Below are positions 954 through 62,220 of a stretch of DNA of 64,000 nt, one piece after another. The DNA is taken from contig JAOIHS010000001.1 in NCBI GenBank assembly GCA_028135785.1, positions 63,194-127,193 on the forward strand. The letters are read 5' to 3'. A program made the translations under genes and the position numbers. The stretch is from SAR86 cluster bacterium (GTDB lineage: Bacteria > Pseudomonadota > Gammaproteobacteria > Magnimaribacterales > AG-339-G14). Under the pieces are notes generated by a model, which saw nothing but the letters and a program-made list of their open reading frames with translations, ran no database searches and was not told the DNA's origin. Each line of letters begins with the position of its first letter. Position 1 is the stretch's first letter.

Positions 954-2098
954 GATTTGGCAATTAGTTTTTCTTCACTTTCTTGTATTAATTTAACCTT
1001 TTCTCTAACCAACCCTTCTAGGTGATTAACAATATCGTCATTTTCTATTTTATGAGCGGGAGAGCCATCTATATAAATTAAACTTCTTGGTGATGCTCCA
1101 GTAAGACCCACATGAGCTGCCTTAGATTCGCCAGGTCCATTAACGTAACAACCTATAACAGCCACATCTATAGACTCTTTAATGTCTTCAAGTCTAACTT
1201 CTAATTCATTCATGGTTTTTATGACATCAAAATTTTGTCTGGAACAGCTTGGACATGCAATAAAATTTATTCCTTTTTTTCTTAAGCCTAGAGATTTCAG
1301 AATATCAAAACCTACTTTAATTTCATCTACTGGATCAGAGGCTAAAGAAACTCTTAGGGTATCCCCTATACCCTCTCTTAATAACTCTCCAATAGCTATT
1401 GCAGATTTTACTGTTCCAGATCTAAATCCACCAGCCTCTGTAAGTCCTAGGTGTAAAGGCTGTTTTATCTCTTTAGCTATTAATCTGTAGCTTTCCGTCA
1501 TCATAAATATATTTGATGCTTTGATGCTTAACTTGAATTGATCAAAATTAAGTTTTAATAATATTTCAACATGGGCCATAGCTGATTCAAACAACGCTTC
1601 TGGACAAGGCTCTCCATACTTTTTTTGTAATTTTTTTTCTAAAGAGCCAGCATTTACGCCAATTCTAATAGGTACTCCATGATGCTCTGCACAACTTACA
1701 ACTTCCTTCACTTTTTTTTCTGATCCTATATTTCCAGGATTAATTCTTAAGCAATCTGCGCCGGCCTCTGCTACTGCAATTGCAATTTTATAGTCAAAGT
1801 GAATATCAGCGACTAAAGGGACATTAACCTTCTTTTTTATTTCTCTAAATGCATCTACAGCCTCGAAGGATGGGGTAGAAACTCTAACTATATCTGCTCC
1901 AACATCTTCTAATTTAAGGATTTGAGCCACAGTAGCATCAACATCTTCCGTATTTGAATTTGTCATGCTCTGAACGGAAATAGGAGAATCTCCTCCTACA
2001 GGAACGCTGCCAACGTTTATTAAGGAAGACTTTCTTCTTGTAATTTTAGTCTTTAATTGATTCAATTTTATTTCCTTCTTGAAATCTAAAATGAGCAT
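950..2098 (-). CDS. ispG: 4-hydroxy-3-methylbut-2-en-1-yl diphosphate synthase (flavodoxin)
   Basis: The ORF contains [34 protein letters not shown] and GCYVNGPGE Fe-S motifs. An alternative TTG start at 2065, preceded by AAGGAA, gives the usual N-terminal length and cuts the rodZ overlap from 53 to 20 nt. Confidence 0.93.
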
Positions 2099-2882
2099 AC
2101 TTAGATGAGCTTTTTATAGCTTTTGTAAAATCCAATTCTTTTTTATTTATAAAAATTTTTACAGATGGCGAGTGACCAATTTGAAAAATTAAAGGTGAAA
2201 ACCCTTTTATCTCATAGTTTCCAGTTTGCATTAGCTCATATAATAAATTTTTTTCATTTTTATCTTTCACAACAATCCAACTTTCTCCGTCAACCTCGAT
2301 ATTAATTAATTGCTCTTCTAAGAGTTTTAATTTAACAGATTTATCTTCAGCAGATTTAATTTCATTATCAATTATTTTTATTGCTTCTGCCTCCAGGACA
2401 GCAAACCCATTGTCTTCTGATGAAACTAACTCACAACTTCCATCAACAGTTATCTCTGAGCAATCAGGATTTATATCCACTGAAGAATTATCTCTGGCAA
2501 ATAGAATTAACAATAAGAACAATATGAAAATAAAAAAACTTAATATCTTGGGTAGTAAATTTTTTGCTTCTAAAATATTTAATAATTTTGTCTTTAAACT
2601 AATATCTGAAACATTTACCAGCTCGTTTATATTATTTATTTTTTTTCCTTGTAGATAAAAATCATATGCCTCTAAACACTCTACAGGATCAATTTCTAAA
2701 AAATTAAAATAAGTCTGGATGTGGAACTTTGAATAAATCTCAGCAGGAAATGAATTAAAATCTCCTATTTCAAGTGAGGATAGGAAGCTTGCAGGAATTT
2801 TAGTTTTTTTTGAACAGTCCTCTATAGTGAGGCCTTTGGATGACCTCATTTCACCTATCTGAGATTTCCAATTAAGCTTCAT
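2046..2882 (-). CDS. rodZ: cytoskeleton protein RodZ-like (N-terminal HTH, one TM, C-terminal DUF4115-like domain)
   Basis: The architecture is an N-terminal HTH-like region ([29 protein letters not shown]), a TM segment ([16 protein letters not shown]) and a beta-rich C-terminus. It sits between ndk and ispG, as rodZ does in E. coli. Confidence 0.7.
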
Positions 2883-2891
2883 TTTCCTATC

Positions 2892-3296
2892 TTAGAAAAT
2901 ATCCGACATTATGTTTATTTCTCTTTCTGCAGAATCAAGAGAGTCAGATCCATGAACAGCATTTTTTGAAAGAGATTCAGCAAATAAAGCTCTCAATGTT
3001 CCTTCATCAGCTTCTGCAGGATTTGTTGCTCCCATTAAGCCTCTATAAGCTTTAATTGCATTTTCCCCTTCTAAAATTTGAACTACTGCTTCGCCAGAAG
3101 TCATAAAATCAACTAATTCTCCAAAAAATGGTCTTTCAGAATGCTCTGCATAAAATTCTTCAGCTATTTGTCTTGTTATTAGTATTTGCTTAGAGTTAAT
3201 AATTGTCAGCCCATGACTTGAAATTTTTTCATTTATCTTATCTGAAAATCCGTTTGCAACAGCATCTGGTTTTATAATACAAAGCGTTTTTTCCAT
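2892..3296 (-). CDS. ndk: nucleoside-diphosphate kinase
   Basis: [13 protein letters not shown]...NAVHGSDS (active-site His region); 134 aa. Confidence 0.95.
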
Positions 3297-3319
3297 ATTT
3301 CTTCCTTATAGTTTTATTG

Positions 3320-3514
3320 TTAATCTGCTTCTTCGATCCACAGAGATTGAATAGCTTCTAAAATCCTTTCTCCACATTTTTCTGGATCATCATCAAATTC
3401 TTCTAAAGAGCACACCATATTCATAAGGTCAGTAAAAAGCAAGGCTTTAGGGTCTTGATCTGGGTACTTATCAATCAAACAGTAAACAATCTCTTGTATT
3501 TCAATCCACTTCAT
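3320..3514 (-). CDS. iscX: Fe-S assembly protein IscX
   Basis: A 64-aa acidic protein (MKWIEIQEIVYCLIDKYPDQDP...) located directly after fdx in the isc cluster. Confidence 0.85.
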   Translation of the reverse strand: MKWIEIQEIVYCLIDKYPDQDPKALLFTDLMNMVCSLEEFDDDPEKCGERILEAIQSLWIEEAD

Positions 3515-3517
3515 ATT

Positions 3518-3859
3518 TTAGTGAGGATGCTCAGAAACCATATTGATATTATATTTTGGAATTTCTATAGTTAAATCTTCATTTTCGATTATTATTTGGC
3601 AACTCAATCTAGATCTAAGTTCTAATCCCCATGCTTTATCTAATAAGTCTTCTTCAGTTTCAGATGCTTCATTTAGTTTGCTATACCCTTCAATTACAAC
3701 TACATGGCATGTAGTACATGCACATGACAATTCGCAAGCATGTTCAATATTTACATCATTGTTTAACATTGCTTCACAAAGAGATGTTCCAGATTGAGCT
3801 TCAAATTCAATTCCATCTGGGCATAGCTCGGGATGAGGCTTAATTATTACTTTCGGCAT
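3518..3859 (-). CDS. fdx: ISC-type [2Fe-2S] ferredoxin
   Basis: Adrenodoxin-type Cys pattern CELSCACTTCHV...SCQI; located within the isc cluster. Confidence 0.9.
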   Translation of the reverse strand: MPKVIIKPHPELCPDGIEFEAQSGTSLCEAMLNNDVNIEHACELSCACTTCHVVVIEGYSKLNEASETEEDLLDKAWGLELRSRLSCQIIIENEDLTIEIPKYNINMVSEHPH

Positions 3860-4221
3860 TAGATGCTAAAGCTTTCGCCGCATCCACATTGAGCAGAGAC
3901 ATTGGGGTTTATAAAAGTTAAGTTTGAATTAACCCCTTCTTTAATAAAATCAACTGTAGTGCCGTTAATAAAAGTAAAGCTTTTTTCGTCAATAAGGACC
4001 TTAAAATCTTCAAAAGAAAATTCTAAATCATTTGATTCTATTTCGTCTGCAAACTCTAGAAAATACGCATAGCCTGAACAACCGGAGTCTCTTATTCCAA
4101 TTCTTATAGCAGCTTTATCTTTTCCATCCAAAAGAGATTTAATATGCTTTTGAGCGGAATCAGTAAAATCTAGGTGCTTATTGGTTGTGTTTCCTGTGAC
4201 TGTCATTGTCCTCGAAATCAA
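3859..4221 (-). CDS. iscA: iron-sulfur cluster insertion protein IscA
   Basis: SGCSGYAY and C-terminal CGCGESFSI motifs. The true start may be the Met at 4206. Either start overlaps the iscU 3' end. Confidence 0.9.
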   Translation of the reverse strand: MISRTMTVTGNTTNKHLDFTDSAQKHIKSLLDGKDKAAIRIGIRDSGCSGYAYFLEFADEIESNDLEFSFEDFKVLIDEKSFTFINGTTVDFIKEGVNSNLTFINPNVSAQCGCGESFSI

Positions 4222-4612
4222 TTATTGCTTTCTTGATTGCTTCCTCAGCAAGAACGCTACAATGAATCTTGATTGGGGGAAGCTCAAGAATATCGACTAT
4301 TTCTTTGTTACAAATTTCTTTAGCTTCATCAATAGTTTTACCTTTGAGCATATCAATCAATTGTCCGCTTGAGGCTATAGCTGAACCGCATCCATAAGTT
4401 TTAAACTTAGCATCTACAATTCTTTTAACTCCATCTTGATCCTCACATTTAATCTGTAATTTCATAACATCTCCACAAGCAGGAGCACCTACAATACCTG
4501 TTCCGACCTTGTCGAAGTCTTTATCGCCTGGTTTCCATCTGCCGACACTTGCCGCCTCTGGATTTTTTAAAGTTTTTTCAAACTTTTCAACTACTTTGTT
4601 TGAATATGCCAT
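4178..4612 (-). CDS. iscU: Fe-S cluster assembly scaffold IscU
   Basis: GAPACGDVMKL, YGCGSAIASS and IHCSVLAEEA scaffold Cys motifs. Confidence 0.95.
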   Translation of the reverse strand: MAYSNKVVEKFEKTLKNPEAASVGRWKPGDKDFDKVGTGIVGAPACGDVMKLQIKCEDQDGVKRIVDAKFKTYGCGSAIASSGQLIDMLKGKTIDEAKEICNKEIVDILELPPIKIHCSVLAEEAIKKAIIDFEDNDSHRKHNQ

Positions 4613-4632
4613 TTTTAAAGCTCCCTAATTAC

Positions 4633-5838
4633 TTATGCCCATTCTATCTTACTTATGTCCACACCATCTTGATACATTTCCCATAATGGAGAAATTTCTC
4701 TTAATTGATGAACCGAAGTCTTTACAAGATCTATCGTAAAATCAATGTCCTTTTCAGTTGTAAATCTTCCAAATGAAAATCTAATTGAGCTATGAGCTAA
4801 CTCATCTGGTCTTCCGAGAGCTCTTAATACATATGAAGGCTCTAAACTTGCCGACGTACATGCCGATCCTGATGAAACTGCGATATGCTTTAAAGCCATT
4901 ATTAGAGATTCACCCTCGACATAATTAAAAGAAAGGTTAAATATACCTGGATAACCTTCTTCAAGATTTCCATTTACATAAATTTCTTCCATATCTTTCA
5001 AGCCATCATATAGCCTATTCTTTAGAGAATTTATTTTTTTAAAATCACTATCCATATCTTCTTTAGCAACTTTGAAACATTCGCCCATTCCGACAATTTG
5101 GTGGGTAGGCAATGTACCTGCTCTTATTCCTCTTTCTTGACCGCCGCCATGAAAAAGAGCTTGGAGTCTGACTCGAGGTTTTCTTTGAATATAGAGTGCG
5201 CCTATACCTTTGGGTCCATATATTTTGTGAGCTGAAAAAGACATCAAGTCGACTTTCAATTCATTTAAATCTATTGGTATTTTTCCAGCACTTTGTGCTG
5301 CATCCACGTGAAACAAGACGCCCTTTTCTCTTGTTATTTCGCCAATTTTTGCAATATCTGTAATGACGCCTATTTCATTATTAAGATGCATTAAGGAAAC
5401 CATGCAAGTATCTTCTCTAATAGCTTCATTAACTTGTTCAGGAGTAACAGCTCCGAATTCATTTGTTTCAAGATAGGTAACTTCAAAGCCTTCTTTTTCT
5501 AATTGTCTGCAAGTATCTAACACAGCCTTATGCTCTATTTTACAAGTTACTATGTGCTTTCCTTTGTCTTGATAAAAATAGGCTGCTCCTTTAATCGCTA
5601 AATTATCTGACTCAGTTGCTCCAGAAGTAAAAATTATCTCTCTAGGGTCGCAATTTACTAATTCAGCTACATTTAGTCTAGACTCTTCAATGAGCTCTTC
5701 TGCTTTCCAGCCAAATGAATGAGATCTTGATCCTGCGTTACCAAAATTACCGTCAAATGAAAGACAGTCTTTCATTTTATCTATAACTCTAGAATCTACT
5801 GGAGTTGTTGAAGCGTAATCTAAATATATTGGTTCCAT
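4633..5838 (-). CDS. iscS: cysteine desulfurase IscS
   Basis: [16 protein letters not shown]-terminus, PLP-Lys motif [10 protein letters not shown] and active-site loop SSGSACTS. Confidence 0.95.
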
Positions 5839-5844
5839 ACCATC

Positions 5845-5872
5845 ATTATGTTGTTTAAAACTATTAATACAA
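5845..5872 (-). promoter_or_regulatory. candidate sigma70 promoter of iscS (TTGTAT-16 nt-CATAAT), predicting a near-leaderless transcript
   Basis: On the minus strand: TTGTAT (5872-5867), a 16-nt spacer, then CATAAT (5850-5845). The A of the iscS ATG (5838) is the 7th nt after the -10 element. No SD is visible. Confidence 0.3.
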
Positions 5873-5881
5873 GGTCAGGTA

Positions 5882-5986
5882 CATCAGATAAGGTTAATAA
5901 AATGCAGAGAGGACCTTACTACGAGATTAAGGTACAGGAAAGTCAGTTATTTGTCCAATTAGCTGGATGCATCAGATATAGGTAAT
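5882..5986 (+). repeat. two copies of a 17-nt direct repeat CATCAGATA(T)AGGT(T)AAT (5882-5898 and 5970-5986)
   Basis: Read directly from the sequence. The repeats lie in the GC-richer spacer between iscS and the oxidoreductase gene. Confidence 0.6.
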
Positions 5987-6117
5987 CGAGCTTTACTTAG
6001 AACCTTTATTTATATAACATTTGATTAGATTTTAACTAATCTCTGCTATGTTAAAAAAGGTACAAACAAAATTGTTAGCTGCAAGCGAGATTCATCCTAT
6101 TTTGGATAATCGGCGCC

Positions 6118-6300
6118 GTGGAAGATAAAAAATACTTATTCAAGAGAAATAACACTTGGTGGGTCAAAGTTGCTGTTCCTAAATCCTTACGAAATGAATT
6201 TGGTTTCGATCTTCGACAAACTACTGGCGAATCTGATTTGGAAAATGCCTTAAAATACAGAGACAAGATTGTTGAAAGTCTAAAATCTAAATTTAAGAGA
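6118..6300 (+). mobile_element. tyrosine-integrase N-terminal (arm-type DNA-binding/DUF6538-like) remnant, fused in frame to the following gene
   Basis: GTG-EDKKYLFKRNNTWWVKVAVPKSLRNEFGFDLRQTTGESDLENALKYRDKIVESLKSKF matches the yL.kR..tWy.r..vPk.Lr...G...sLgt.d...A pattern of integrase N-termini. No catalytic domain follows. Confidence 0.45.
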
Positions 6301-8130
6301 GATGGCCGTGAACTTTCATTATCTTCAGCCAAGTATTTAGAAAAAACTGATATATCGAACCCTCAATACTTTCACAAAGTTGTTGACTGCCAATACGCTT
6401 GCCCTGCTCACACTAATGTTCCTGAATATATAAGACTTATTGCTCAAAAAAAATATACAGATGCTTATATGCTTAATTGGGAATCAAATGTGTTTCCTGG
6501 AATCCTTGGAAGAGTTTGTGATAGACCTTGTGAGCCAGCTTGCAGAAGAGGAAGAACTCATGACAAAGCTGTTGCAATCTGTCGTTTAAAAAGAGTTACG
6601 TATGATCATAAAGGTGATATTGAGAGTTATTTACCTGAAATACCTTCTGAAAAAAATGGTAAAAAAATTGCTCTTATTGGAGGTGGTCCTGCTTCTCTTA
6701 CTGTAGCGAGAGATCTTTTGCCGCTTGGATACGATTGTACAATTTTTGAAAAAGATCATAAGCCTGGGGGTTTGATGAGGACAAATATCCCATCTTTTAG
6801 ACTTCCTGAAGACGTATTAGATGAAGAAATATATAGAGTAGTTGAAATGGGAGCAACATTAAAAACTAACTCATATATAGATAAATTGAGCCCTCTTTTA
6901 AAGGAATTTGATTCAGTTTTTGTTGGAACTGGCGCGCCTAAAGGAAAAGATTTGAATATTATAGGTCGATCTAAAGCCTCTAAAAATATTCATATAGGTA
7001 TAGATTGGCTCACTAGTATAGCTTTCGAACATGTTAAAAAAATTGGCAAAAAGGTTATTGTTATCGGTGGAGGAAATACCGCAATGGATTGTTGTAGATC
7101 TGCTATTAGATTGGGTGCTAAAGACGTGAAAGTAACTGTTAGAAGTCCTTATTCTCAAATGAAAGCGTCAGAATGGGAAATAGAAGAAACTCAAGAAGAA
7201 GGCATACCTATTTTAGACAACACTTCTCCTAAAGAATTCTTATATGACGATAAAGGAAAGCTTTGTGGAATGAAATTTGAAAAAATGACGCAAATAGAGA
7301 TTGACGGTAGAAAAAAGATGCGACCTACTGGAGAAGAAATTATTTTTGAGTGTGATGATGTGCTTTTAGCAATAGGTCAGGAAAATGCCTTTCCCTGGAT
7401 TGAAAAAGATATAGGTATCGAGTTTGGTGATTGGGAAATGCCAATTGTTGATAAATTAACTATGCAATCAACACATCCAAAGGTATTTTTTGGCGGTGAC
7501 TCGGCTTGGGGTCCTGAAAATATCATTTGGGCAGTTGCTCATGGACATCAAGCAGCTATTTCAATTGATAACTTTTGTTCAGAAATAAGTTTAAAAGAAA
7601 GACCTGATCCAATGACTAATCTTGTTAGTCAAAAAATGGGTATACATGAATGGTCGTATGACAATGATATTTCTCAAGCTCAAAGATATGTCGTGCCTCA
7701 TGCTGAAATGTCAAAGTCACTAAAAGATTTAAAAACAGAAGTTGAATTAGGTTTTGATGAAGAAATGGCTTTAGAAGAAGCTCAAAGATGTCTGAATTGT
7801 GATATGCAAACTGTATTTGAAGATGATCTTTGTATTGAATGTGATGCTTGCGTTGATATATGTCCTACCGATTGCATCAATTTTATTGATAATGATACTG
7901 AAGAAAAAATAAGAGATAAATTAAGAGTTCCCGCAATTAATTTAGATCAAAGTTTATATGTTTCTGGAAAGCTAAAAACTGGAAGGAGAATGGTTAAAGA
8001 TGAAGACATGTGTGTGCATTGTGGTCTGTGTGCTGAAAGGTGCCCTACTGGTGCATGGGATATAAAAAGGAATTCTTATAAAGAATCAAACACCTTAAGC
8101 AAAAGAATAACAACTAAAGAAATTGCCTGA
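6118..8130 (+). CDS. GltD-like FAD/NAD(P)H oxidoreductase with N-terminal Fe-S Cys motifs and a C-terminal 2x[4Fe-4S] ferredoxin domain (KorC-like electron-transfer subunit)
   Basis: CQYACPAHT and CDRPCEPACRRG motifs; two dinucleotide-binding folds (IALIGGGPASL, VIVIGGGNTAMDC); C-terminal CIECDACVDICP and CVHCGLCAERCP. Its TGA overlaps the korA-like ATG as TGATG. Confidence 0.8.
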   Translation: MEDKKYLFKRNNTWWVKVAVPKSLRNEFGFDLRQTTGESDLENALKYRDKIVESLKSKFKRDGRELSLSSAKYLEKTDISNPQYFHKVVDCQYACPAHTNVPEYIRLIAQKKYTDAYMLNWESNVFPGILGRVCDRPCEPACRRGRTHDKAVAICRLKRVTYDHKGDIESYLPEIPSEKNGKKIALIGGGPASLTVARDLLPLGYDCTIFEKDHKPGGLMRTNIPSFRLPEDVLDEEIYRVVEMGATLKTNSYIDKLSPLLKEFDSVFVGTGAPKGKDLNIIGRSKASKNIHIGIDWLTSIAFEHVKKIGKKVIVIGGGNTAMDCCRSAIRLGAKDVKVTVRSPYSQMKASEWEIEETQEEGIPILDNTSPKEFLYDDKGKLCGMKFEKMTQIEIDGRKKMRPTGEEIIFECDDVLLAIGQENAFPWIEKDIGIEFGDWEMPIVDKLTMQSTHPKVFFGGDSAWGPENIIWAVAHGHQAAISIDNFCSEISLKERPDPMTNLVSQKMGIHEWSYDNDISQAQRYVVPHAEMSKSLKDLKTEVELGFDEEMALEEAQRCLNCDMQTVFEDDLCIECDACVDICPTDCINFIDNDTEEKIRDKLRVPAINLDQSLYVSGKLKTGRRMVKDEDMCVHCGLCAERCPTGAWDIKRNSYKESNTLSKRITTKEIA

Positions 8131-9974
8131 TGCATAATTTAAAAAAAATAGAATCAATAAGCGCAGTAAATGATTTTGTTATTAAGTTTGCTAATGTTAA
8201 TGGTTCTGGATCTGCTAGTGCAAATCAAATGTTTGCTAAGGCCATGTTTAGAATGGGTATACCAGTTAGTCCAAAAAATATTTTTCCATCAAATATTCAA
8301 GGTCTTCCTACTTGGTTCGAAGTTAGAGTAAATGAAAATGGGTACTTAGGAAGCAGAGGTGGAGTTGATATAGCTGTTGCAATGAATCCGCAAAGCTACT
8401 CTAAAGATGTAGAAGAAATTTCTCCAGGTGGATTCTTGCTTTATGACTCAACATGGAAAAGAAATTTTAATAGAGACGATATTACAATTATTGAAATTCC
8501 ATTTACTCAATTATGTGTAGATTCTTTTAAAAATCCAAAACAAAGGGCTTTGTTTAAAAATATTGCTTACGTTGGAGCACTCTCAGCTCTTTTAGAAATA
8601 GAATATAAAGTACTAGAGACTTTAATTTCTGAACAATTTGAAAAAAAACCGTCATTAATCGAACCTAATTTAAAAGCTTTAAACCTGGGTAGAGATTATG
8701 TCATTGAAAACTTATCGTTCCCTATTGGAATAACAGTTTCTAGATCAGATAAATTAGAAAATAAGATTTTAATAACAGGAAATGAAGCTGCTGGATTGGG
8801 TGCTGTTTATGGAGGTGCTACTTTTTGTTCTTGGTATCCAATAACGCCTTCCACATCTTTAGCTGAAGGTTTTGAGAAGTATGCTAAAAAATATCGCATA
8901 GAAAAAGAAACAGGAAAAAATCTTTTTGCAAGTGTGCAAGCTGAGGATGAATTGGCTGCAATTGGAATGGCTATTGGGGCAAATTGGAATGGAGCAAGAG
9001 CTTTTACTGCTACAAGCGGTCCTGGAATCTCACTAATGAGTGAATTTCTTGGTCTTGCGTATTTTGCAGAAATTCCTTTGGTTCTTTTCAACGTTCAAAG
9101 AGGAGGTCCTTCGACTGGAATGCCTACCAGAACACAACAGTCAGATATTTTAGCATGCGCCTATGCTTCACATGGTGATACAAAACATATTCTTCTTTTT
9201 CCTTCCGATCCTAAAGAATGTTTCGACTTTGCTGCTAAAGCTTTTGATCTTGCAGATCAACTACAGACTCCAGTATTTGTAGTCAGTGATTTAGATATGG
9301 GAATGAATGATTGGGTGTGTGATAAATTCGAGTGGGATGATAAATACACCTTCAATAAAGGAAAAGTTTTATCAAAAGATGATCTAGATGAAATGGAAAA
9401 TTACGGTAGATATTTAGATGTTGATAATGATGGAATCTGTTATCGCACTTATCCAGGAACACATCCTGAAAAAGGGGCTTTCTTCACCAGAGGAACATCT
9501 CATGATGAATTTGCAAGATATACTGAAGATGGAGATATAAATGCAGCAACTTTAACTCGGTTGATGAAAAAATTTAGAACAGCATCTGAAATAGTTCCAG
9601 AACCAGTTATAGAAATTAATGGAGAAAATAGTTGTGGCGTTATTTTCTATGGAAGTACTTCTCCTGCAATTCAAGAAGCTAAAGATTTACTGAAAGAAAA
9701 AGGAATCAATATCGATCTAATGCAGATTAGATCCTTTCCTTTTAATTTAGATGTTTGGGAGTTCATTGCTAACCATGATCGTATTTATGTTGTTGAACAA
9801 AATAGAGATAGTCAAATGAGAACTCTAATAATGGCTGAAGGAGGAATCTCTCCTGAAATCTTAAGACCATTAGTTCATTTTACTGGCGATCCAATTCAGG
9901 CAAGTTTTATTGTTAATAAAATTTCAGAAAGAGAAGTAAATTATAAATCTCACATAAATGCAAAAAAACGCTAA
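8130..9974 (+). CDS. korA: 2-oxoacid:acceptor oxidoreductase subunit alpha (KorA-like)
   Basis: 614 aa. The N-terminus NGSGSASANQMFAKAMFRMGIPV (gamma-like domain) is fused to the alpha domain (TGNEAAGLGAVYGG...YPITPST). Confidence 0.85.
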   Translation: MHNLKKIESISAVNDFVIKFANVNGSGSASANQMFAKAMFRMGIPVSPKNIFPSNIQGLPTWFEVRVNENGYLGSRGGVDIAVAMNPQSYSKDVEEISPGGFLLYDSTWKRNFNRDDITIIEIPFTQLCVDSFKNPKQRALFKNIAYVGALSALLEIEYKVLETLISEQFEKKPSLIEPNLKALNLGRDYVIENLSFPIGITVSRSDKLENKILITGNEAAGLGAVYGGATFCSWYPITPSTSLAEGFEKYAKKYRIEKETGKNLFASVQAEDELAAIGMAIGANWNGARAFTATSGPGISLMSEFLGLAYFAEIPLVLFNVQRGGPSTGMPTRTQQSDILACAYASHGDTKHILLFPSDPKECFDFAAKAFDLADQLQTPVFVVSDLDMGMNDWVCDKFEWDDKYTFNKGKVLSKDDLDEMENYGRYLDVDNDGICYRTYPGTHPEKGAFFTRGTSHDEFARYTEDGDINAATLTRLMKKFRTASEIVPEPVIEINGENSCGVIFYGSTSPAIQEAKDLLKEKGINIDLMQIRSFPFNLDVWEFIANHDRIYVVEQNRDSQMRTLIMAEGGISPEILRPLVHFTGDPIQASFIVNKISEREVNYKSHINAKKR

Positions 9975-9980
9975 ATATTT

Positions 9981-11033
9981 ATGACTTTTATAAAACCATT
10001 AAATCATCATCCAAAATTAGAAAAAAATAATTTAGGATTAACTAGACGCGATTATGAAGGAGCTGTTTCTTCTTTGTGCGCTGGCTGCGGTCATGATTCA
10101 ATAAGTGCATCTATCATCGAATCATGTTTTAAATTGAATATAGAGTCATACAAAGTTGCAAAGCTTTCAGGAATTGGATGTTCATCAAAGGCGCCGGCAT
10201 ATTTTCTTGATCAATCACATGGTTTTAATTCTGTTCACGGAAGAATGCCTTCAGTAGCTACTGGAGCTAGTTGCGCTAATAGAGATCTTTTGTATTTGGG
10301 TGTATCTGGAGATGGTGATAGTGCTTCAATAGGAATAGGTCAATTTATTCATGCTATAAGAAGACAGGTAAATATGGTTTATATAATTGAAAATAACGGA
10401 ACATATGGCCTCACAAAAGGACAGTTTTCTGCAACAAACGATCTTGACTCAAAAAACAAGTATGGTGACGATAACTTGTTCAAACCTATTGATTTGGCAA
10501 CAATGGCTATTCAATTAGGTGCCACATATGTAGCTAGGAGTTTTTCAGGAGATAGAGAACAACTTATTCCCCTAATCATGGGAGCAATGCAACATAAAGG
10601 TTTTGCTTTGCTAGATATAATCAGTCCTTGTGTAACTTTTAATAATCACGCTTCTTCGACCAAGAGTTATGACTATATTAGAGAGCATAACGAAGCCGTA
10701 GGTAAAACTGATTTTGTTCCTATAGGGGAGGAAATCAAGACCTCTTATGAAGAAGGAACCTCCGTAGAAATAAATCTACATGATGGTTCTAAATTATCAC
10801 TAGAAAAGACCGATAAAAATTTTGATCCATGTGATGCGGGTAAATCTTTAAACTATATTAGAGAAAAGGAAAAAGAAGGAAAAGTACTAACTGGACTACT
10901 ATATGTTGATAGTAAATCAAAAGATTTAATCGAGACTCTCAACATGACGGAAACTCCATTGAGTCAATTACATCAAGACTTAATATGTCCAGGAAGTGAC
11001 GTTCTCAACTTAATAAATAAAGATTTAAGTTAA
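9981..11033 (+). CDS. korB: 2-oxoacid:ferredoxin oxidoreductase subunit beta (KorB-like, TPP-binding)
   Basis: CAGCGHDS Fe-S motif and TPP motif GDGDSASIG...IENNGTYGLTKGQ. Confidence 0.85.
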   Translation: MTFIKPLNHHPKLEKNNLGLTRRDYEGAVSSLCAGCGHDSISASIIESCFKLNIESYKVAKLSGIGCSSKAPAYFLDQSHGFNSVHGRMPSVATGASCANRDLLYLGVSGDGDSASIGIGQFIHAIRRQVNMVYIIENNGTYGLTKGQFSATNDLDSKNKYGDDNLFKPIDLATMAIQLGATYVARSFSGDREQLIPLIMGAMQHKGFALLDIISPCVTFNNHASSTKSYDYIREHNEAVGKTDFVPIGEEIKTSYEEGTSVEINLHDGSKLSLEKTDKNFDPCDAGKSLNYIREKEKEGKVLTGLLYVDSKSKDLIETLNMTETPLSQLHQDLICPGSDVLNLINKDLS

Positions 11034-17366: not shown

Positions 17367-17442
17367 TGGTGGGTCGTATAGGATTCGAACCTATGACCAA
17401 TTGATTAAAAGCCAACTGCTCTACCAACTGAGCTAACGACCC
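17367..17442 (-). tRNA. tRNA-Lys (anticodon UUU), CCA encoded
   Basis: The minus strand reads GGGTCGTTAGCTCAGTTGGTAGAGCAGTTGGCTTTTAATCAATTGGTCATAGGTTCGAATCCTATACGACCCACCA. It folds as a cloverleaf with anticodon loop CTTTTAA and is near-identical to E. coli tRNA-Lys. It follows cpoB, as the lysT cluster does in E. coli. Confidence 0.97.
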
Positions 17443-59887: not shown

Positions 59888-60222
59888 AAGGAGAGCTGAC
59901 CCATAAGCCGGGTTCTGTTTTATGTAACCATTCATCTCGGATATATGTCGCCATATATCTCTAGCAACTTACCCAGATTCAATGCGGATAACATTAATGA
60001 ATCTCTATTTAGTCTTGCTCCAGACGGGGTTTACCTAGCTATATTTGTTTCCAAATATACGGTGCGCTCTTACCGCACCTTTTCACCCTTACCATAATGG
60101 CGGTTTATTTTCTGCTGCACTAGCCGTAACAATAAAATATTGTTCCCAGGAGTTACCTGGCGTCTTATCCTATGGAGCCCGGACTTTCCTCTAACATAGT
60201 TAGCGATTACTCAGTCAGCTCA
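59888..60222 (-). ncRNA. rnpB: RNase P RNA, bacterial type A (compact, ~335 nt; ends +/- a few nt)
   Basis: The minus strand reads GAGCTGACTGAG...GAGGAAAGTCCGGGCTCCATAGG...AGGGTGAAAAGGTGCGGTAAGAGCGCACC...ACAGAACCCGGCTTATGGGTCAGCTCTCC. This aligns with the conserved regions of E. coli M1 RNA. The P1 stem is followed by TTTTT. Confidence 0.95.
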
Positions 60223-60234: not shown

Positions 60235-61044
60235 TTATTTTTTGTTGTACTTACTATAAATTTCTCTAGAGGAAAGTTTAGAAACTTTTGAAACAATTTT
60301 AGAAATAGTTCTAAGAGGCAAAAGACCTTTAAGATTTGTAACTAATTTGTCTTCAAGATTATCTGGAAGGATTTCTATATTATTGGTTCCTTCCAATAAA
60401 AAAACTATTTCTCCTTTCTCTAAATTCTTATCATTTTCAATTTTTTCTAGTAAATCTTTTGCGTTTCCTAGATAAAAATTTTCATGAGACTTAGATATTT
60501 CTTTAGCTAAAGCCACCCTTCTATCTTCTCCTAAAACCTCCAGAACTGATTTAACTAATTTCTTTATTCTCCTTGGAGACTCAAAAAAAATTACTGTTCT
60601 CTCTTCATACAAAAATTTATTCAGATACTTTTTCAGCTCCAAAGGCTTTCTTGGAGGAAATCCTTCAAAAATAAATTTATTCACTTTTAATCCTGATGCA
60701 ACGAGAGAGGATATAACTGAGCTAGGGCCAGGTATAGGACTTATTTTTATATCTGCTTCTTTAGATGCTTGAACTAATTCAAATCCTGGATCTGAAATTA
60801 AAGGAGATCCTGCGTCAGATATTAAGGCTAAATTTTTACCATCTTTTAAAAGATTTATATATTTTATAATTTCACCCTCATCCGAAAATTCGTGAAAAGA
60901 ATGCATCTTAGTTTTTATTGAGAAATTATTTAACAATAATGCTGACTTTCTTTTATCTTCAGCAAGAATCAATTCAACAGAATTTAGAATGTCAATTCCT
61001 CTTAATGACAAATCTTCAAAATTACCAATTGGAGTTGCAACCAA
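60235..61044 (-). CDS. rsmI: 16S rRNA (cytidine1402-2'-O)-methyltransferase RsmI
   Basis: LVATPIGNFEDLSLRGI and the tetrapyrrole-methylase fold. Conserved residues KGTLY lie upstream of the TTG at 61044, so the true start is probably further upstream, possibly the ATT at 61068 after GGAG. Confidence 0.88.
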   Translation of the reverse strand: MVATPIGNFEDLSLRGIDILNSVELILAEDKRKSALLLNNFSIKTKMHSFHEFSDEGEIIKYINLLKDGKNLALISDAGSPLISDPGFELVQASKEADIKISPIPGPSSVISSLVASGLKVNKFIFEGFPPRKPLELKKYLNKFLYEERTVIFFESPRRIKKLVKSVLEVLGEDRRVALAKEISKSHENFYLGNAKDLLEKIENDKNLEKGEIVFLLEGTNNIEILPDNLEDKLVTNLKGLLPLRTISKIVSKVSKLSSREIYSKYNKK

Positions 61045-61080
61045 ATATAATGTACCTTTAGTAAGAATAATTTTTCTCCA

Positions 61081-62220
61081 ATGAAAACCTCAATATCTGT
61101 AATAATTTTATTAATCCTAACTTGCTGTGCGTCAACTAGCAATTCAAGGCTTACTAATTTTTATTTTGATGAGTCTCCCAATAAAGTCAGTAAGAGTTTG
61201 CTTAAATCTATCTCTACTTCGTCTCAAAAATATGATTTAACAATCTTTTATACGAATAATGATTCAAAAAAAATAGATAAGTTTTTGGAAGGAGTTAAAG
61301 GAGCATATTTTTTTCAAAAATCGATAGGTAAAAATAAGAAATCAATAAAATTTAGCAAAATAATTAAGGATAAAAATTTCTGCAACACAATAAAGTCTCT
61401 AGCTGGAAAGAAAATTATAGTTCATTATGAGAAACTAGATTCTTCATCAAAAAAATGCTTTTCTGAATTAAATTCAGATTATTATTTGGTCTCTCTTGAT
61501 AAGTATAATTATTTATCCGGTGCCAACTTAATCAATTTAAAAAATCAAAATTATCTCAACCAATTAATTAATAATGAAAATTTTAATCTAAATAATTTTG
61601 TATTCATTTCTAAAAATATTGCAGAATTAGAGAGCTTTAATAAAAGTAATGAACTTTATAGCAAAAAAATAAGTGAGGATTCTTTTGCTTTGATAAATGG
61701 ATCAAAGAATTTTGAAAGTCAAATTGCATCTTTATTTGAACTTTCGCTTAGCCAAAAGAGAAAAAGAGATTTGCAAAGGGAAATAGGCAATGAAATAAAA
61801 ATAACCCCAAGAGCTAGAAAAGATATTTCAAATGTCATAGTAAGCTCTAGCTCTAATATCGCGAATAGAATAGTACCAGCATTTAAATATAATCTCCTTT
61901 TTGATGTAGAGATTTTTAATTTACCTAATCACTTTGATTATTGGAATCCTTCTTCTTCTGTAGATGACTTAAATGAAACTCAAGGATTGGAATACCCTAT
62001 TTTATTAAACAAAATAAATTTGGGTTCTGCTAAGTTCAAAAATTATTCCTCTGAAGAAAAAATCATCTATTCACTTGGGTTCGACCTCATTAACTATATT
62101 AATAGTGGAAATGGCTATTTTGGTTTACTAGGCGAGTACTCTTCTGAAGAAAACCAAATAAAGATTAGTCCTTTACAGGTGTCTTTTAAGGACGGCGAGA
62201 TAATACAAAAATTAAACTAA
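61081..62220 (+). CDS. lipoprotein, LpoA-like by position (divergent from rsmI)
   Basis: Lipobox LILTCC. Divergent rsmI/lpoA synteny is as in E. coli (yraL/yraM). The sequence is low-complexity and AT-biased, so the homology is unverified. Confidence 0.4.
   Translation: MKTSISVIILLILTCCASTSNSRLTNFYFDESPNKVSKSLLKSISTSSQKYDLTIFYTNNDSKKIDKFLEGVKGAYFFQKSIGKNKKSIKFSKIIKDKNFCNTIKSLAGKKIIVHYEKLDSSSKKCFSELNSDYYLVSLDKYNYLSGANLINLKNQNYLNQLINNENFNLNNFVFISKNIAELESFNKSNELYSKKISEDSFALINGSKNFESQIASLFELSLSQKRKRDLQREIGNEIKITPRARKDISNVIVSSSSNIANRIVPAFKYNLLFDVEIFNLPNHFDYWNPSSSVDDLNETQGLEYPILLNKINLGSAKFKNYSSEEKIIYSLGFDLINYINSGNGYFGLLGEYSSEENQIKISPLQVSFKDGEIIQKLN

Follow-up and report, generated by a model that had tools for sequence, protein, structure and literature searches.

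Trigger enzymes such as PutA, BirA, NadR and the archaeal RbkR join an enzyme to an N-terminal DNA-binding domain that regulates the genes of the enzyme's own pathway (PMC5397151). Here, we describe a gene of comparable layout in a 64,000-nt stretch of DNA from a SAR86 cluster bacterium (contig JAOIHS010000001.1, positions 63,194 to 127,193; hereafter the window). Its open reading frame (ORF; 6118-8130, + strand) encodes a protein of 670 amino acids (aa), in which a small domain related to the N-termini of tyrosine integrases (DUF6538) precedes a GltD-like flavoprotein, and copies of a short motif, wAAGGTACA, lie upstream of it. Judged from sequence comparison, we consider it probable that this domesticated arm-type N-domain recognizes wAAGGTACA and that the protein autoregulates its operon as a trigger enzyme. 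As in PutA, which is also a flavoenzyme, a domain of DNA-binding type (by homology) and an enzyme would share one polypeptide, with candidate operators inferred within 300 bp upstream of the own operon at all loci that carry the domain. The differences lie in the domain, which is of the integrase arm type (DUF6538) rather than a ribbon-helix-helix or winged helix-turn-helix domain, in the enzyme, a GltD-like subunit of a 2-oxoacid oxidoreductase, and in the occurrence of the domain-plus-operator unit on four enzymes.

The closest described counterpart of the domain itself is the arm-binding domain of lambda integrase (Int; residues 1-63), a three-stranded sheet buttressed by a helix (PMC2831311). 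The window's N-domain is homologous in sequence to the N-termini of DUF6538 integrases, and it resembles the lambda domain in a predicted three-stranded sheet plus helix and in its association with short repeated sites, variable in orientation and spacing, near its own gene. Unlike lambda Int, the window protein carries neither a core-binding nor a catalytic domain, and the repeats flank a metabolic operon instead of an attachment (att) site. A Pfam search of the 670-aa ORF gave no match to PF00589 or to a SAM-like domain. By its domain content, the protein is not an integrase and would hence not perform recombination, because both of these domains are missing.

The reading frame is as the preliminary description of this DNA, made from its letters, had given it. 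The ORF opens at GTG 6118 (aa 1) behind an in-frame stop at 6076-6078; the only other in-frame ATG, GTG or TTG ahead of the first Cys motif is TTG 6238 (aa 41), and the first in-frame ATG falls at aa 118. Three parts can be distinguished: the DUF6538-like N-domain (aa 1-60; 6118-6297, +), delimited by Pfam PF20172, a profile of orthologues, an AlphaFold2 (AF2) model and conservation; a linker (aa 61-74; 6298-6339, +), recognized by comparison of orthologues and by low model confidence; and the flavoprotein core (6340-8130, +, including the stop codon). A protein search returned 8000 significant homologues. Among the 120 matches listed, identities are 66-90%, most proteins have about 670 aa, and 98-100% of the query is covered in all except one truncated protein (83%); most of them carry a precomputed PF20172 match. 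The linker differs in length and sequence among orthologues, and the frame is always preserved.

Orthologues start with ATG precisely where the window has GTG 6118 (MEDKKYLFKRNN.., MDTRYLFKRHNTWWVKVAVP..), which supports the earlier view that the functional start lies inside the integrase-like segment. The approximately 50 bp directly ahead of this codon (6066-6117) contain a GC-rich CGGCGCC and merely a weak Shine-Dalgarno-like sequence. The closest relative, locus L081, differs from the window at this point, with AAGGGA followed by ATG, and from the sequence translation initiation may be weaker in the window strain. The weak Shine-Dalgarno-like sequence, together with the in-frame position of TTG 6238, would also be compatible with a start further downstream, at this TTG or at a non-canonical codon, in which case the DUF6538-like codons would be untranslated or form a separate small gene. 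However, TTG 6238 falls within a conserved helix, at the invariant L41, the ATG of the orthologues coincides exactly with GTG 6118, and no intact orthologue has a stop codon between domain and core, despite the variation in linker length. We regard a downstream start as highly improbable.

Conservation of the N-domain is pronounced. Fourteen of its residues are invariant (Y6, L7, R10, W15, V16, K17, V20, P21, G29, D31, L32, R33, L41 and A44), and between the window and five relatives the proportion of nonsynonymous differences (pN) is 0.13-0.24, against a proportion of synonymous differences (pS) of 0.71-0.94, at which synonymous sites are saturated. By these measures, purifying selection acts on the N-domain. 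A search with the N-domain alone yielded 80 further metagenome loci, in which the domain stands in frame with the flavoprotein via a linker of variable length, except at a few loci where it is joined to another partner and at a few more where sequencing errors are evident. The best genome matches to the window are single-cell or metagenome-assembled genome (MAG) assemblies of SAR86, including locus L033, with a protein identity of 85%. Since the fusion recurs in > 80 independent assemblies, a misassembly near position 6300, which had been raised as a concern, is excluded.

In the orthologues analysed from outside SAR86, the extension is missing. All 76 analysable orthologue loci from other lineages, among them Alphaproteobacteria, Porticoccaceae, Halieaceae, Saprospiraceae and Acidobacteria, begin at (M/L/V)KPTDIxxPxYFHKVVDCQ, which corresponds to about aa 75 of the window protein. 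The alignment of these N-termini bears out the proposal that the segment is an add-on to a GltD-like flavoprotein. These comparisons mark aa 1-74 as an addition that is confined to the lineage, yet old and under selection, and the fusion as native and lineage-wide in SAR86; a pseudogene remnant is thereby excluded.

The preliminary description had explained the extension differently, as the scar of an integrative element, in which a deletion would have left the 5' end and perhaps the promoter of an integrase gene on the flavoprotein gene. Taken as a rival reading, the deletion would be recent and specific to this genome, and the segment, whether fused to the flavoprotein gene or merely open in frame with it, would be devoid of function. 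The homology to integrase N-termini is indeed real, and the absence of the extension from non-SAR86 orthologues agrees with a secondary acquisition of this kind. Against it, the in-frame fusion is common to > 100 diverged SAR86-type homologues besides the independent assemblies, the invariant residues and a pN far below pS speak for selection, the G + C content of the spacer equals the window average, and neither an integrase catalytic remnant nor an att site or tRNA gene is found near the locus. Within SAR86 the domain is native and common to the orthologues, a result that contradicts the scar. Its occurrence on further enzymes outside this lineage, in one case in a Woeseiaceae MAG, strengthens the point. 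The probability that we leave to a recent scar is close to nil.

The relation to integrases that had been suspected for the N-terminus is supported at two levels. Residues 6-50 match Pfam DUF6538 (PF20172) with E = 8.8e-6 and 25.7 bits when the domain is searched alone (21 bits within the full protein), and sister fusions exceed the cut-off of this family (P0144, 43.8 bits; P0133, 40.8 bits). A profile built from 17 orthologous N-domains and run against 1.84 billion representative sequences gave 432 matches at E <= 1e-3. Fragments aside, the matched proteins have 384-523 aa and E values from 5.6e-13 to 1e-7; in the seven that were checked, DUF6538 is combined with a Phage_integrase domain in 7/7 and with a SAM-like domain in 6/7. 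From these matches, the N-domain is homologous to the N-termini (DUF6538) of tyrosine integrases, in which the domain occupies the arm-binding position.

The predicted structure points in the same direction. The AF2 model of the isolated N-domain (predicted local distance difference test, pLDDT, 85.6) has strands at residues 7-10, 13-19 and 31-35, a short helix at 22-28 and a long one at 41-60. This layout is consistent with the arm-type (AP2/integrase-like) fold class, which it does not demonstrate. In the full-length model the N-domain is again confident, and the pLDDT drops below 50 from aa 63, in the linker. Foldseek against the BFVD viral library returned weak matches to phage integrases and to an AP2/ERF protein, with a query template modelling score (TMq) of 0.5-0.6 and E > 0.5.

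Two integrase loci are of interest for comparison. For the closest integrase, P0168, all three copies of TGTACC on its 3-kb contig lie within about 520 bp upstream of int (L163, 1-610), and the gene of a DUF6538 integrase adjoining tRNA genes, P0173, has CTGGCACCTACA twice directly before its start (L164, 1-400). These are two anecdotal cases that fit arm-type sites near int. An ultimate origin of the domain from an integrase 5' end plus its arm-type sites is plausible.

The second half of the argument concerns the motif. In the spacers of four SAR86 loci, AAGGTACA recurs in all, with hardly any other sequence that can be aligned. We collected the 300 bp upstream of every domain-bearing locus, dereplicated these loci to 37, and carried out an unbiased 7-mer count. 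AGGTACA is the top 7-mer, found upstream of 37/37 loci and ranking ahead of poly-A words. There are usually 2-5 copies per locus (at least two in 28/37, at least three in 18/37), and the density of 7.7 per kb upstream compares with 0.28 per kb elsewhere in the same loci. Upstream of the non-fused orthologues it occurs at 0/76 loci. When copies are anchored on GGTAC alone, the consensus is wAAGGTACA, with A in 92% of cases after GGTAC. The copies stand in both orientations, in some clades as abutting palindromes such as AAGGTACATGTACC, and a + strand copy lies 9-64 bp ahead of the start codon in 26/39 mapped loci. Pairs of sites 48-53 bp apart are seen repeatedly in different clades, at KorC-type and Nfn-type loci alike (5876/5929 in the window; - 130/- 81 in L135; - 85/- 37 in L146), and in Nfn-type loci a third site follows 24-25 bp further on. 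A strict co-occurrence of domain and motif is shown across four fusion partners, and the computational evidence for this association is strong.

The co-occurrence could also arise if AGGTACA were the operator of a separate, unlinked factor and the N-domain served in docking, in control of assembly, or in solubility or stability. This explanation draws on the predicted nature of DNA binding by the N-domain, on the shared ancestry of most domain loci, and on the ability of small beta-beta-beta-alpha domains to mediate protein contacts. It sits poorly with the joint presence of domain and motif on four unrelated partners in low-GC as well as high-GC genomes, and with the complete absence of the motif upstream of the non-fused orthologues. 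No transcription-factor gene is consistently adjacent to the domain loci, the Nfn-type and IscS-type loci have no KorAB that could act as docking partner, and in integrases the domain holds the arm-binding position. We consider a separate factor unlikely.

In the window, the sites lie in the spacer between the flavoprotein gene and the divergent iscS (5839-6117, 279 bp). It is the largest divergent gap of the window, as had been stated, and its G + C content of 0.33 exceeds the mean of 0.26 for the 14 window gaps of at least 40 bp (the spacer included). The spacer is GC-richer than most spacers, yet it is not compositionally foreign, as the preliminary description had held, since the value for the whole window is 0.324. 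The recurring AAGGT motifs noted there hold up: six copies in 5871-6061 compare with ~ 0.4 expected (130 copies per 64 kb, both strands), and they belong with the extension, the conserved unit being wAAGGTACA. Among the eight GGTACA hexamers in the 64 kb, three fall within 5876-6064 and form the sole cluster of the window. Exact AAGGTACA occurs three times in the 64 kb, with ~ 2.5 expected; two of these copies are in the spacer (5929 and 6057).

Three sites can be named on the + strand. The distal site, CAGGTACA (5876-5883), overlaps AAGGTCA (5871-5877) and is separated by 38 bp from the start codon of iscS, a position conserved in L033, L081, L091, L097, L100 and L102. The middle site, AAGGTACA (5929-5936), follows 53 bp downstream of the distal one, and the proximal site, again AAGGTACA (6057-6064), lies 61 bp before the start codon of the flavoprotein gene. 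Three degenerate copies accompany them. AAGGTTA (5890-5896, +) lies within the first unit of a 17-nt repeat and is not conserved as a full site. An inverted copy reads GTAAGGTCC on the - strand (5911-5919), and the corresponding place in relatives is taken by AACCTTAT or TCCTTATC. A further inverted copy, AAAGGTTC on the - strand (6000-6007), is flanked by a conserved CTTTACTTA and a TATAAC box, from which we infer a possible promoter. In the L086 clade, a - 35-like box, TTGTAC, stands 17 bp ahead of TATACT and is overlapped by one copy of the motif, and in the L091/L100 clade the proximal copy is downstream of a TATAAT box.

The third exact copy of AAGGTACA in the window (61051-61058, -) falls into the 36 bp that separate two divergent genes, one of the TP_methylase family (60235-61044, -) and one LppC-like (61081-62220, +). 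With about 2.5 exact copies expected, chance may account for it; alternatively, it could be a further target.

The 17-nt direct repeat at 5882 and 5970 exists and is imperfect, with 14/17 positions alike; relatives do not have it in this form. The hairpin GATTAG-N7-CTAATC at 6023-6041 is present as described, and it is not conserved in the closest relatives L081 and L033. The same applies to a longer imperfect inverted repeat (5992-6071) that pairs AACCTTT with AAAAAGGT; the fold of hairpin and longer repeat has a z-score of - 2.4. A terminator consensus scan of 5780-6180 gave no match. An Rfam scan of the spacer found nothing at the gathering threshold or at E <= 1, the only Rfam or ARAGORN matches of the window being a bacterial class A RNase P RNA (59888-60222, -; 305.6 bits) and a tRNA-Lys(UUU) (17370-17442, -). 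A 45-aa ORF at 5848-5985 was rejected as a gene, as it is not conserved and its frame amounts to 15 aa in L081.

These structures bear on a variant of the mechanism that acts on RNA, in which the N-domain would bind AAGGUACA in its own 5' untranslated region and control translation or stability. The regular presence of a coding-strand copy shortly before the start codon (the 26/39 mapped loci mentioned above, and only 2-6 nt before the ATG in some high-GC loci) would suit such a role, as would the ability of the inverted copies in the window to pair. However, many copies lie 120-240 bp upstream and inverted, including the abutting palindromes AAGGTACATGTACC, an arrangement in keeping with a double-stranded DNA target. 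Relatives do not share the window hairpin, no Rfam family matches, and the homologous integrase domains sit at the DNA-binding position of lambda Int (PMC2831311). Autoregulation at the level of RNA seems to us quite unlikely.

Loci outside the KorC-like group also bear on autoregulation through wAAGGTACA on DNA. One set consists of NfnA/PyrK-like fusions from high-GC sediment-metagenome contigs. These proteins have 358 aa, with DUF6538 (43.8 bits) followed by NAD_binding_1 and DHODB_Fe-S_bind, and the next gene is GltD/NfnB-like. Upstream of Nfn-type fusions there are 3-4 direct copies of AAGGTACA, of which the last ends up only 2-6 nt ahead of the ATG. Four of the Nfn-type spacers (L138, L144, L146 and L153) additionally share a conserved box, CCTGTCTATCGTG, situated nearer the gene that diverges upstream, and another factor may bind there.

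Fusion to KorA (DUF6538 plus POR) is found in a Woeseiaceae MAG (protein MDJ0814518.1) and in a second MAG, of unknown taxon. At one of these loci the motif stands three times in direct orientation, with AAGGTACAGGTACA and TAAGGTACA among the copies. The other locus combines a good direct copy with an inverted and a degenerate one. Fusion to IscS is represented by a cluster of seven sequences, of which one is on a long, SAR86-like contig (L165). Here the gene order is purC, an acetolactate-synthase-like gene, the N-domain-iscS fusion, iscU, iscA, fdx, iscX, ndk, rodZ and ispG. In the part that holds the acetolactate-synthase-like gene (NF006187, 861 bits) and the fusion (1121-4440), the former takes the position that korCAB has in the window, and korCAB is absent there. 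The iscS of L165 is split by apparent frameshifts, and other members of the cluster are intact up to 356 aa. Upstream of the IscS-type fusions we find TTGTACCTTAT and TATGGTACAG. A further protein, P0163, with the N-domain and an unrelated C-terminus, was set aside as a possible chimera after reading by eye.

The enzyme-borne N-domains share 44-75% identity with one another and 29-50% with integrase N-domains. On these identities, the pattern fits one recruitment, followed by shuffling among the first genes of operons.

How a protein of this kind could act can be outlined as follows. The N-domain would be a tethered, sequence-specific DNA-binding module for wAAGGTACA, addressing in the window the sites at 5876, 5929 and 6057 and possibly the degenerate copies. 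As the first protein of its operon, the enzyme would feed back on transcription of that operon. KorAB-type enzymes, NfnAB and IscS are oligomers, and each such assembly would display at least two flexibly tethered N-domains. Such multivalent binding would fit the several sites, their loose orientation and the recurrent spacing of ~ 50 bp. The direction of control would, at a guess hinted at by the positions of the candidate sites, be repression.

Several observations weigh against this autoregulatory mechanism and temper our confidence in it. The PF20172 score of the window's N-domain sits just under the 27-bit cut-off. Foldseek against the Protein Data Bank (PDB) gave no significant match to the N-domains of lambda or Tn916 Int, and the sequence profile of the N-domain matches no PDB chain. 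The AF2 model of the whole protein is of low quality (mean pLDDT 48.7) and uninformative on whether the domain docks to the enzyme. In the literature searched, DUF6538 is without mention and has no characterised member. A sigma-70 consensus promoter scan of 5780-6180 found none, which makes the positions of the sites relative to a promoter guesses. Most domain loci are from SAR86 and related by descent, so that independent support comes from ~ 8 loci of the other three architectures. Finally, in some high-GC loci there is overlap between the proximal copy and the ribosome-binding region, and this copy could in part be a Shine-Dalgarno-like element.

The enzyme to which the N-domain is attached in the window can be placed with the help of its domains and neighbors. 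The core is a GltD/NfnB-like Fe-S flavoprotein (KorC-like; Pfam Fer4_20, Pyr_redox_2 and Fer4_7) with a C-terminal 2x[4Fe-4S] ferredoxin domain, and homology to GltD-like proteins sets in at about aa 68-90 according to Pfam and NCBIfam. NCBIfam NF009410 (PRK12771) aligns to aa 68-649 with 426 bits, below its cut-off of 516 bits; all domains of an NF009410-type protein are found in the ORF by Pfam, namely Fer4_20, the FAD/NAD(P) Rossmann domain and the C-terminal 2x[4Fe-4S] domain. The exact sequence of the window protein has no database record. Downstream follow a KorA-like alpha subunit of a 2-oxoacid:acceptor oxidoreductase (8130-9974, +; TIGR03710, 590.9 bits, above the cut-off of 482.75; Pfam POR and POR_N) and a KorB-like beta subunit (9981-11033, +; Pfam TPP_enzyme_C; TIGR02177, 188.8 bits, below the cut-off of 261.9). 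By homology, the 670-aa protein is encoded by the first gene of a 2-oxoacid oxidoreductase operon of the korC-korA-korB type.

The same gene set, a GltD-like flavin adenine dinucleotide/Fe-S subunit with KorA and KorB, is reportedly that of the three-subunit 2-oxoglutarate:NADP+ oxidoreductase (KorABC) that Ebenau-Jehle et al. are said to have described in Azoarcus evansii in 2003. We know of no N-terminal DUF6538 extension on the A. evansii enzyme. By analogy, since the gene set matches, the comparison points to NAD(P)+, and not free ferredoxin, as the partner to which 2-oxoacid oxidation is coupled. In some SAR86 families, 2-oxoglutarate:ferredoxin oxidoreductases have been reported (PMC11582366).

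On the other side of the spacer lies an isc operon (2892-5838, -), in the order iscS, iscU, iscA, fdx and iscX, then ndk, rodZ and ispG. Its first gene, iscS (4633-5838, -; TIGR02006, 695 bits), is divergent from the flavoprotein gene and shares the spacer with it, and no iscR precedes it. At another SAR86 locus, L001, a gene for an Rrf2/IscR protein (5351-5803) is located before iscS together with an IscR-box-like sequence, TCCTGATGGATTTAGTCAAGAATAT, and the fusion is present as well. The idea that the window's spacer is a decayed iscR was rejected, as a tblastn search with the L001 IscR yielded no match in the window better than E = 3.6.

We may speculate that the N-domain and its sites also control the divergent isc (iscSUA) operon in this iscR-less lineage. 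This is suggested by the missing iscR, by the conservation of the distal site 38 bp from iscS and by the existence of the IscS fusion. The arrangement would resemble the control of isc by IscR (Rrf2) in that the spacer shared with iscS bears AGGTACA sites and in that a related lineage has the domain fused to IscS itself. It differs in that the DUF6538 protein family and the AGGTACA motif are unrelated to those of IscR, and SAR86 loci of the L001 type have both iscR and the fusion.

Extended in this way, the domain and wAAGGTACA could together form a portable, self-contained autoregulatory cassette, derived from an integrase and its arm sites and moved onto the first genes of several Fe-S/flavin redox operons, KorC-like, KorA, NfnA-like and IscS. 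In iscR-less SAR86, it may replace IscR and couple Fe-S cluster biogenesis to expression of the Fe-S-rich 2-oxoacid oxidoreductase. We put this wider proposal forward tentatively, as a possibility that is on balance doubtful.

Trigger-enzyme logic as such is already known. New would be an integrase arm-type domain in this role, the enzyme families concerned, and the apparent portability of domain plus operators. If autoregulation through wAAGGTACA is correct, recognition of this motif would be the first function for the uncharacterised DUF6538, a domain common on the integrases of genomic islands. It would also add to the trigger enzymes a new class of enzyme-borne regulators, in which the DNA-binding part is of the integrase arm type, and reveal a regulatory unit, consisting of a DNA-binding tag and its operators, that moves between operons. 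SAR86 is among the most abundant bacterial groups of the surface ocean, and little is known of its gene regulation. For these bacteria, the finding would point to control of an alternative step of the tricarboxylic acid cycle and possibly of Fe-S biogenesis. If the cassette proposal is also true, these streamlined genomes would be able to regulate operons and yet do without a separate gene for a transcription factor.

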